Origin: a virus
Taxonomy: Duplodnaviria; Heunggongvirae; Uroviricota; Caudoviricetes
Reading direction: 5' to 3' (one strand)
IMG/VR virus record: IMGVR_UViG_2645727991_000008
Length of the DNA: 12,523 nucleotides
Shown here: piece after piece, positions 9,001-12,000 of the stretch
Numbering within the stretch: position 1 is the first letter of the stretch
Layout: each line of letters begins with the position of its first letter
Program-made: the position numbers

Positions 9001-12000
9001 GAAACAGATATTGGAGAACCGGGGAATGAATGATGTCTGAGTCTTATATATCAGAACTCCTTCGCTGTCGCTGGGGGCTCCTGTGCTTATGTCGTTTCCC
9101 CGATTCGGTTTTGAACGATTACCGAATGTTGAAGAATTATGCCAAAATATAGAAAGGATTTACTGCATGAATACCCAATATTTACAGTATGTTCGTGAGC
9201 AACTTATGGCAGCTACTGCTGACTTGAACGGAGCAACGAAAGGCCAGCTCGAAGCCTGGCAGGAGCATGCACAATTTGATACTGGTACATACAAACGAAA
9301 GAAGCCGCGCATTCTGGATGTGGTAACTGGCAAGATGATTACGCTGGATAATACGCCGACTTCCGGTAAGCAGTCGTACGCAAAAGGTTCATCCATTGCT
9401 TTGGTCAGCCCGGTTGAATTCTCAACCTCTTCATGGCGCCGCGCGGTTTTGTCTCTCGATGAACATCAGAAAGCATGGTTGCTTTGGTGTTACAGCGAAA
9501 GCGTTCGATGGGGGCATCAGGTCACCATAACGCAATGGGCATGGAGCGAGTTTAAAGATTTGTTAAGTAACAGAAAAATTGCAGGTAAGACACTGGATCG
9601 CCTGAAGACGTTAATCTGGCTGGCTGCACAGGATGTGAAGAGCGAACTTGCAGGGCGTGAGGCCTATGAATACCAGACACTGGCATCATTGGTGGGAGTG
9701 ACAACAAAAAACTGGTCCGAGACATTTACTGAACGCTGGGTTGCAATGAAGCACATTTTTCTACAGCTTGATAGTGATGCTTTATTGCTTGTGACGAGAA
9801 CACGTTCAAAACAAAAGGCAGCATTTTTACAGCAAAATATTGCAAAACTGGATTAAAAGCCATATACTTCATGCAAATTTGGTATGTTGTAAAAAATGTA
9901 TAAACCCGCTGCCGAGTGGGTTTTTTTTATGCCCTGAGTTGTACTTGTACGGTAAACATGCTGGCTGCTATGTAATAGAGTTTTTTTAGCCTGTAACCTC
10001 TTGACGGCATTGAATTGCTTTTGTTATGAGTTGTAAGTCAATGTTATCATCTTGTATTGGGGTGGTTATGAAGGATGGTGCGCTGCTCAGGAGTTCTTCA
10101 CTTTTTATTGCCTACATGGGATGCCTTGGATGGGGGAGTGCTTATTTCTATGGATGGGGTACTTCTTTTTACTACGGCTTCCCATGGTGGATTGTAGGTG
10201 CAGGTGTTGATGATGTTGCCAGAAGTTTATTTTTTGCAGTTATCGTCATTGCTATATTTCTTATCGGTTGGGGTATTGGTGTTGTATTCTTTTTCGCAGT
10301 GAAAAGAAAACATTCTATGCAAGAGCTAAATGTATTTCGCCTTTATTTTGCTGTGGAATTATTGTTTGTGCCGGCAATTATTGAGTTTTCTATATTGAGA
10401 CAGAAGATTCAGGTACCTCTTTTGCTACTGTCAGCAGCGATTGCGCTGGCGGTTACAATTTCGATAAGATCTTATGGGCGATTTTTATCGGTATCATGCT
10501 TCTATGATAAGCCATTTATAAAAAAACATTTTTTTGAGATTGTGATGATTGCTTTTGTGGCATATTTTTGGCTTTTTTCATTTCTGACAGGATATTACAA
10601 ACCACAGTTTAAGAAAGAATATGAAATGATTAATTATAATGATGGTTGGTATTATGTTCTTGCTCGTTATGATAATTGTCTGGTTTTGTCTACTTCTTTC
10701 AATGCAGGTAGTAAAAGGTTTGTCATTTATCAATCAGCACAAGATAAGAATCTTCAGGTTGATATTGTAAGGACCAGAATTTAATTGGCTGCATAAATAA
10801 TATTTTAAGTTGCAAGTTGGCTATTCGTAGGAATAGAACCTTAGGCATGCTGAATGCGTTTTCTGAACATTGTTTTATAAACTGTGTCTGCTTGCTGTTG
10901 TGATCCTGCTTTTAGTGATGGTGATGATGGATTTCACCAGCAGGATAATGTTGGTACTGACTGATGGCGCTCTGGTCTGCGGCATTGTGGTATTGCTGTG
11001 GCCGATGATGAAAGAACAGAATGAATAATTCTTGACTTTTTTGTTTACTGTTTATTAAAAAATCAACCGCATGGTGAATCCTCCTTGGAGGGGCTAAATG
11101 ATCGAGTTTTAAGGGCACGTAGCGAGTTCTGTTTGATCATTGCAGAACTTAGCGGGAGGCGCCATGCGTACATCACTAGTGTTATTCCTTTTATCATTTT
11201 CCTTGTGAGTTCTGGCTGCGCATTGCGCAGCCTTTTTTTTATGACCTGCCACTGGCAGATGGTCATCCTGTGATTTGATTCCGCTTCCGGCTTTTTAACT
11301 CTGTTCCTCTACACGGGAGAAATTCGATGTCGATTAAACATTACGATGTTATCAGGGCGGCGTCGCCGTCAGACCTTGCGGAAAAGCTGACACACAAACT
11401 GAAAGAGGGCTGGCAGCCATACGGCGGACCGGTTGCCATTACGCCGTACACACTGATGCAGGCGGTGGCTATTGAAGGAGAGCCACAGGTCGGCCCTTCA
11501 TCTGAGCCGGATTGGTACTACGTCATCGTACTGGCCGGGCAGTCCAATGCCATGGCTTACGGTGAAGGGCTTCCGCTGCCGGATTCATACGATGCTCCGG
11601 ATCCGCGCATTAAACAGCTGGCGCGCCGCAGTACAGTGACGCCGGGCGGGGCTGCCTGCAGATATAACGATATTATTCCGGCTGACCACTGTCTGCATGA
11701 TGTGCAGGATATGAGTACGCTGAATCATCCGAGGGCTGACCTGAGCAAAGGGCAGTACGGCTGTGTCGGCCAGGGTTTACATATTGCCAAAAAACTGCTC
11801 CCGTATATCCCGAATAACGCGGGGATCCTGCTGGTACCATGCTGTCGTGGTGGTTCGGCATTTACCCAGGGCGCGGAGGGGACATTCAGCGAGTCCACGG
11901 GGGCCAGTCAGGATTCGGCACGCTGGGGGGTGGCAAGCCGTTATATCAGGATCTGATTTCCCGCACAAAAGCGGCATTGCAGAAAAATCCCAAAAACGTT

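Follow-up and report, generated by a model that had tools for sequence, protein, structure and literature searches.

A frameshift of one base divides a NanS-p-like sialate O-acetylesterase gene near the 3' end of the window, the whole stretch of 12,523 nucleotides analysed here, which is a complete 12.5-kb draft contig of a prophage. The lesion is a change from GGG to GG at 11932-11933, directly after a run of six Gs and a T, and it is almost certainly an unprogrammed loss of one base in a known gene. That the base was lost in the cell, which would make the gene an ordinary, very recent, strain-private pseudogene of nanS-p, has in our judgement an even chance of being correct. The deletion is private to one draft contig in every collection searched.

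The interrupted esterase gene and the position of the missing base

The first-pass annotation of this DNA had reported an esterase frame that stops at 11954-11956, the same protein carrying on in a shifted frame, and an overlap of the two frames around a G5 and a G6 run. All of this is confirmed. The truncated open reading frame (ORF) gives a product of 209 aa, made up of 202 native residues followed by seven out-of-frame residues (ASRYIRI) and the TGA. The -1 frame is stop-free from 11857 through the window end at 12523; its open region begins at 11818, so that the upstream and -1 frames are jointly open across 11818-11953. The features of the gene and of the two contig ends are as follows.

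1..105, strand not given: end of an ISEc10-like element (IS21 family), with which the contig opens; matches the istA ends of ISEc10 at 97-98% over 105-107 nt
about 100-264, - strand: remnant of the N antiterminator gene, about 55 of 90 codons, IS-interrupted; relatives align only from window position 100
11214..11242, + strand: intrinsic terminator, stem-loop GGCTGCGCATTGCGCAGCC plus T run, late-operon leader downstream of Q; a terminator is annotated at the corresponding site in phage 434 (2888-2916)
11316..11319, + strand: ribosome-binding site (GGAG) of the esterase gene, from sequence; a ribosome-binding site is annotated at the homologous phage 434 position (2990-2993)
11327..11956, + strand: truncated esterase ORF, from ORF search and translation
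11336..11473, + strand: DUF1737 N-terminal domain, intact, aa 4-49 (PF08410, E=5.7e-16)
11537..11551, + strand: SGNH block I, GQSNA, aa 71-75, with nucleophile Ser73; kept in the truncated product (3PT5 alignment, PMC10792757)
11846..11863, + strand: SGNH block II, RGGSAF, aa 174-179; kept in the truncated product (blocks of PMC10792757)
11899..11903, + strand: G5 run, unchanged against the closest intact homologues
11925..11930, + strand: G6 run, unchanged; GGGGTG in distant alleles (homologue alignments)
11932..11933, + strand: lesion, GG where all homologues have GGG (homologue alignments)
11932..12523, + strand: esterase coding sequence carried on in the -1 frame (aa 203-399 of 616), free of other lesions and ended by the contig end (SASA, E=1.5e-6)
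11954..11956, + strand: premature TGA, the +1-frame stop of intact alleles (translation)
12019..12036, + strand: SGNH block III, MQGEFD, aa 232-237; missing from the truncated product (blocks of PMC10792757)
12160..12231, + strand: mosaic patch, six sites of L019/L015/JLK-2012 type amid L004-type sites (allele alignments)
12397..12408, + strand: SGNH block V, THFS, aa 358-361, with catalytic His359; missing from the truncated product (blocks of PMC10792757, 3PT5 alignment)

Alignment to intact NanS-p homologues, the check that the first-pass annotation had suggested, places the indel and identifies the downstream frame as the same protein. With one G put back, the 399 codons of the gene that lie in the window depart at five residues from the intact 616-aa homologue WP_000023271.1, the protein of the closest full-length relatives, and the one-base gap is the only lesion in those 399 codons. 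At the nucleotide level the 3'-terminal 1197 bases of the window are 99.2-99.3% identical to many prophage genes of E. coli and 99.0% identical to the gene of phage 434, each match covering 1198 bases of the matched record. Homologues read CTGGGGGGTGGGCAAG where the window reads CTGGGGGGTGGCAAG, and the missing G is therefore assigned to the GGG after the T. Every intact homologue aligned agrees, with one identical gap against a set of eight intact alleles, three more distant alleles and five IMG/VR alleles. An extra G in the G6 run, as proposed at first, does restore an open frame, but that run is not the place of the loss: the G5 and G6 runs are the same as in the closest intact homologues, and in the more distant alleles the G6 run is itself broken (TGGGGTGTGGG). 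The ancestral peptide across the lesion is RWGVGKPLYQDLI, in longer context ...SARWGVGKPLYQDLI..., and not ...WGGGKPL. In the upstream frame base 11932 completes the Val202 codon (GTG), and in the downstream frame it opens the Gly203 codon (GGC).

Judged by its domains, motifs and position, the gene is a NanS-p-type esterase. Intact homologues carry three Pfam domains, DUF1737 (aa 4-49), SASA (from aa 66) and DUF6645 (aa 467-577, E=4.7e-18), and align with NanS/YjhS (PDB 3PT5) over aa 60-379 (E=4.6e-122) and with the NanS-p C-terminal domain (PDB 6YP6) over aa 421-613 (E=1.1e-29). The window gene is broken at codon 203 and ends with the contig at codon 399, and its DUF6645/6YP6 region is known from relatives that are 99% identical. 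The N-terminal DUF1737 domain is present, as is the SASA/SGNH domain with blocks I, II, III and V, although these blocks are split over two reading frames; the block definitions (GQSNA, RGGSAF, MQGEFD and SHFS) were taken from the table for NanS 3PT5 (PMC10792757). The SASA model PF03629 scores E=0.0025 on the upstream piece (17.9 bits, under the cutoff of 24.8) and E=1.5e-6 on the downstream piece. The gene also has the expected place in a lambdoid late region between Q and the lysis cassette: Q at 9167-9856 is followed by a TfpB-like membrane protein, a DUF3927 protein, the terminator and the esterase gene, and in relatives the holin, lysozyme and spanin genes come next. What the gene does not have is an uninterrupted ORF, as it stops after 209 aa.

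The deletion divides SGNH blocks I and II from blocks III and V. We infer that the 209-aa product should be catalytically dead, because it lacks His359, the MQGEFD block and the lectin-like C-domain. The truncated product still has a complete DUF1737 domain, a domain that has been given a capsid-decoration role in phi24B (2026 preprint).

Mutation in the cell or error in the assembly

The preferred reading is that of an unprogrammed event, in which one G would have been lost from the GGG triplet of codons Val202/Gly203. Such a loss would inactivate one copy of the multi-copy nanS-p gene in a prophage that was already defective, and it would be tolerated through the other copies. The prophage is regarded as defective because of the IS in its N gene, which is annotated in the relatives L004 and L005 at 3893-4165 on the - strand. 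Tolerance is suggested by the redundancy of the gene, which has 7072 matching places in 1613 genomes, with a median of two and up to 14 in each carrying E. coli genome. The weakest step of this explanation is that the deletion is present in the DNA and not confined to the assembly, a step that might equally hold or fail.

Several observations argue that the mutation is real. Elsewhere the contig appears accurate, and all of its other genes are intact. Against the closest full-length relatives (13E0767 and OkiPb01716, 99.8%) there are 19 differences, of which four are 1-bp indels in short runs. The idea that these four mark a contig full of homopolymer errors was rejected, since three of them are found in independent complete genomes: T7 at 540 is the allele in 2 of 264, CC at 1861 in 18 of 241, and A6 at 7735 in 4 of 620. 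Two of these three allelic indels correspond to RefSeq proteins (WP_001062368.1 and WP_000750156.1), and at 1861 it is the window that has an intact 185-aa ORF, with a truncated one in 13E0767 and OkiPb01716. The prophage also appears to be decaying, with IS21-family DNA in N, and its closest relative overall is a heavily deleted prophage from the dog isolate Z1323PEC0011, which has a truncated esterase of its own. Furthermore, truncated nanS-p ORFs are also present inside multi-megabase contigs.

The rarity of the deletion points the other way. A query of 66 bp across the site recovered 941 copies in 660 complete E. coli genomes; 657 of these genomes differ from the window by the one-base gap alone, and the deletion is in none of the 660. 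It was likewise not found in the phage collection, nor did an exact scan with a 50-mer of the deletion allele find it in GTDB representatives, IMG/VR or JGI metagenomes. Among 153 billion gene positions the truncated protein is present in a single contig, JHSU01000050.1 (GCA_001266125.1), which is the window itself. The lesion lies 590 bp from the contig end, inside a multi-copy gene, and a G3 run is a weaker target for natural slippage than the adjacent G6 run, which is unchanged.

The alternative is that the gene of the strain is intact and that a G was dropped from the consensus of a multi-copy gene close to the end of a short-read contig, by mixing of reads from paralogues or by under-calling of a homopolymer. 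This is a serious contender, with a likelihood somewhat short of even; were it correct, the frameshift would have no biological meaning. The window is a draft contig both of whose ends are repetitive, with 1-105 taken up by IS21-family DNA and the 3' end by nanS-p, as is expected of a short-read draft. Draft assemblies commonly break in nanS-p, as can be seen from the thousands of 'partial' N-terminal fragments in public drafts; the cluster of this gene holds 2507 NanS-p fragments that are mostly of this kind. An assembly error would also fit an esterase gene that is otherwise undamaged. The comparison with Z1323PEC0011 is in favour of it as well. Outside the esterase there are two differences in about 8.9 kb, while the 881 bp of esterase compared have five, including the deletion. 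Thus, five of the seven differences fall within 881 bp of about 9.8 kb, an enrichment of ~25-fold (binomial P about 1e-4).

A second anomaly lies downstream of the lesion. At 12160-12231 six bases of the L019/L015/JLK-2012 allele type are interleaved with L004-type bases, so that the allele type is swapped every few bases. The patch was found nowhere else: its 44-mer is absent from GTDB representatives, IMG/VR and JGI metagenomes, and searches of complete E. coli genomes with megablast and blastn gave no identical copy. A fine-scale mosaic so close to the deletion counts in favour of an artefact. On the other side, natural alleles are mosaic, and each base state in the patch is present in some natural allele, as would be expected if paralogues recombine. 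Gene conversion in one tract from an allele of the JLK-2012 type was considered and rejected, since the window switches allele type several times within 37 bp. The window esterase combines V9I with the N296/M298/A301 patch, a combination present in no allele examined. The best protein match (P0001), reported as 100% identical, was rejected as the intact form, as it has V9 rather than I9 and is without the patch.

Other features of the lesion weigh against an artefact. There is no second private indel in 12.5 kb. The lesion is in a run of three bases, whereas flow-based chemistries fail first on runs of six or seven, and the runs of that length in the contig match known alleles. The paralogue types compared are equal in length at the lesion, so mixing should not produce a gap. 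A de Bruijn assembler cannot make chimeras below the k-mer length; if one was used, the patch and the deletion would both have been in the reads.

Transposon scar, phase variation and recoding

The second-best protein match (P0002, 216 aa) diverges after ...RWGV, at the very codon of the lesion. In the nanS-p genes of GCA_012457925.1 and of the IMG/VR record UViG_2522572021_000002, an element of ~1449 bp lies within the same GGG triplet. Its junctions read ...CTGGGGGGTG / CCCC...AACGG / GGGCAAG, also written ...GGGGGGTG / CCCC...AACGG / GGGCAAG (slashes mark the junctions), and its left end is CCCCTATTAAGTTGTCAAGC. The 398-aa protein of the element matches the NCBIfam model for IS110 RNA-guided transposases (NF033542) with E=6.8e-71. 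These findings raise the idea that the GGG is a specific target and that the deletion is a scar, or by-product, left when a bridge-RNA-guided element of the IS110 family was excised in the wrong register within the G runs beside it. The insertion point is within 1-2 bp of the deletion in a gene of 1851 bp, and the right end of the element lengthens the target run to five Gs, which would allow a register shift. However, elements of the IS110 family are described as excising scarlessly (PMC11208160), and no remnant of the IS lies within the window. Over 4 kb the two loci that carry the IS share 99.95% identity and may represent one insertion event, and the coincidence of insertion and deletion was spotted post hoc among many truncated variants. 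In view of the scarless excision and of the perhaps single insertion, an origin as a scar is considered very unlikely. If true, it would show bridge recombination acting imprecisely in nature and leaving a frameshift, and an RNA-guided element hitting exactly this GGG triplet is the sole lead here with some wider interest.

Slipped-strand phase variation, in which the G-rich stretch would act as an on/off contingency tract, had been among the readings offered in the first-pass annotation. The region of the lesion is indeed G-rich (G5, G6, T and G3, in this order), and other frameshifted copies of nanS-p also have their lesions at homopolymers, including G5 and A6 runs. Yet the altered run has only three bases, and the longest run at the frame change, the G6, is unaltered together with the G5. 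The comparison of G-run lengths among isolates found no tract-length variation in the 660 complete E. coli genomes: apart from the gap, 657 are the same as the window over the 66 bp, and none of the 941 copies is in an 'off' state. The G6 run is not kept as a homopolymer in other alleles, and the frameshifts elsewhere are dispersed, at the A6 run 11789-11794, a G4 run near 11821 and the G5 run, rather than gathered at one tract. Switching is thus an explanation of exceedingly low probability.

Programmed -1 ribosomal frameshifting, or transcriptional slippage, to give the full-length enzyme can be given practically no weight: although the downstream frame is the -1 frame and slippage in the P site on the G run would yield a protein close to the native one (...WGGGKPL...), the overlap 11818-11953 has no slippery X XXY YYZ heptamer in frame, a run of six Gs is not long enough for the polymerase to slip efficiently, and the annotated homologues compared at the site (phage 434, the E. 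coli chromosomes L001-L005 and L007-L009, and the Stx1 phage and 933W alleles) are all single ORFs of 616-645 aa, so that there is no conserved recoding architecture. With neither variation in tract length nor a slippery heptamer, phase variation and programmed frameshifting are both unsupported.

Comparison with known systems

The gene family was known before, as were its architecture and the place it occupies in the genome, and frameshifted copies are common in public assemblies. The finding is an ordinary one, of little import beyond sound annotation, and a single broken copy of the gene in a defective prophage is no more than the background one would expect. What the finding adds is a corrected position for the lesion and a warning that frameshifts of this kind should not be mistaken for switches. 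The gene is best annotated as a frameshifted nanS-p (pseudo)gene with its lesion at 11932-11933 and not in the G6 run, and single-base frameshifts near contig ends in multi-copy prophage genes should not be taken for phase variation without support from reads.

The contingency loci of Neisseria, Haemophilus and Campylobacter resemble the window in that a gene acting on host glycans is frameshifted in a G-rich stretch. Unlike those loci, the window has no long tract at the lesion, the tract is not polymorphic across the 660 genomes, and the homopolymer is not conserved. Closer parallels are found among other copies of nanS-p. ECPA7_2647 of E. coli PA7 and ECDEC11D_5485 of DEC11D are likewise frameshifted by a single base in this part of the gene. 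Several of the frameshifted copies end at the same TGA as the window, with the tail ...SRYIRI, because this TGA is the +1-frame stop of intact alleles; their lesions lie elsewhere, and none has the change from GGG to GG.

Chromosomal NanS (YjhS), the 9-O-acetyl-N-acetylneuraminate esterase of PDB 3PT5, has the SGNH/SASA domain and the blocks GQSNA, RGGSAF, MQGEFD and (S/T)HFS in common with the window. It differs in being without the DUF1737 and C-terminal domains, and the window gene differs from it in having blocks I-II and blocks III and V in different frames. The nearest counterparts are the NanS-p proteins of EHEC and STEC (z1466 of 933W, vb_24B_21/gp84 of phi24B and CPT_434_71 of phage 434), whose architecture and genomic position have been described (PMC10462455; PMC8065619) and whose function as a family is documented (PMC8065619, PMC10462455), esterase activity on Neu5,9Ac2 or O-acetylated sialic acids of mucin being established for family members only (PMC8065619). 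The window copy is set apart from these by the loss of 1 bp at codon 203 and by its cut-off at codon 399, where the contig ends, and from the Stx-phage genes by its surroundings, where a TfpB-like membrane protein and a DUF3927 protein stand upstream instead of stx genes. In the remaining respects it is a typical member. The order DUF1737, SASA and lectin-like C-domain, seen on the intact homologues that are 99% identical, is that of NanS-p, the place after Q and the terminator and before the holin and lysis genes is the same, and the nucleotide identity to the phage 434 gene is 99.0%. The gene belongs with the NanS-p esterases, which give EHEC and related E. coli access to the O-acetylated sialic acids of mucin.

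Broken copies of nanS-p and what they retain

Contig breaks inside nanS-p, the prophage sialate O-acetylesterase gene, are very frequent in draft E. coli assemblies, as seen in public protein clusters, where the 90% cluster of the query alone holds 2507 N-terminal fragments, mostly marked "partial". Several independent frameshifted copies also occur (PA7, DEC11D, Logan assemblies and some complete chromosomes), with lesions in A6, G4 and G5 runs, and a TGA at the site of window 11954-11956 is common to many of them. The GGG triplet that is short of one G in the window is interrupted elsewhere by a ~1449-bp IS110-family element (RNA-guided, NF033542), found in two assemblies sharing 99.95% identity across 4 kb.

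Features of the nanS-p locus
11336-11473: DUF1737 domain, complete in the truncated esterase product
L020 3601-3612 and L021 (reverse complement) 7498-8948, two IS-bearing loci: IS110-family insertion, at the site homologous to window 11932-11934

In phage phi24B, a 2026 preprint describes DUF1737 as a capsid-decorating module that is cleaved from the esterase. Because this domain is intact here, the frameshifted allele could still supply the capsid-decorating part.

Downstream, at window 12160-12231, six substitutions form a patch that agrees with the second nanS-p allele type (L019/L015/JLK-2012) at those sites only, the second-type sites being interleaved with sites of the first type (L004) every few bases. 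Four are non-synonymous, three of them (N296, M298 and A301) lying in 12201-12231 and the fourth (I279) at 12160. This combination was found neither among 4345 copies in complete genomes nor in scans of IMG/VR, GTDB-representative and metagenome sequences. Either gene conversion produced this patch as a rare mosaic, or it reflects a consensus built from mixed paralogues.

The N gene and the rexAB position

1-105: end of an IS21-family ISEc10-like element, at the contig start
100-264 (minus): prophage N antiterminator gene, remnant
702-1454 (minus) and 1451-2008 (minus): two-gene module occupying the rexAB position, with N on one side and the cI-like repressor on the other

The terminal part of the ISEc10-like element (97-98% identity across 105-107 nt) interrupts the N gene, leaving only ~55 of its 90 codons. 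Lytic growth is probably defective in this prophage. In the neighbouring module, the DUF1828 protein matches PDC-M24B, a candidate defence system in PADLOC (E=6e-10), and the 185-aa ORF overlapping its gene has a weak match to PDC-M24A (E=4.8e-4). The A gene of this module is unbroken in the window and in the dog isolate Z1323PEC0011, while 13E0767 and OkiPb01716, which are the closest full-length relatives, carry a 1-bp deletion (CC to C at window 1861).

The nin region and the Q-gene junction

7519-7590: first antitermination (Q-type) gene, remnant, labelled "incomplete" in the annotation of relatives
7730-8692 (minus): LpxR-family lipid A deacylase gene, nin region
9167-9856: Q82-like Q gene, complete

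At the 3' end of the LpxR-family gene, the length of an A6/A7 run (window 7736-7741) sets the C-terminus, which is ...FFF* in the common 319-aa form versus ...FFFN* in the 320-aa form of the window allele (4 of 620 genomes). After the Q-type remnant come lpxR, encoded on the opposite strand, then ylcG and the complete Q82-like Q gene, an arrangement whose module-replacement junction resembles the annotated "434B non-homology" region of phage 434.
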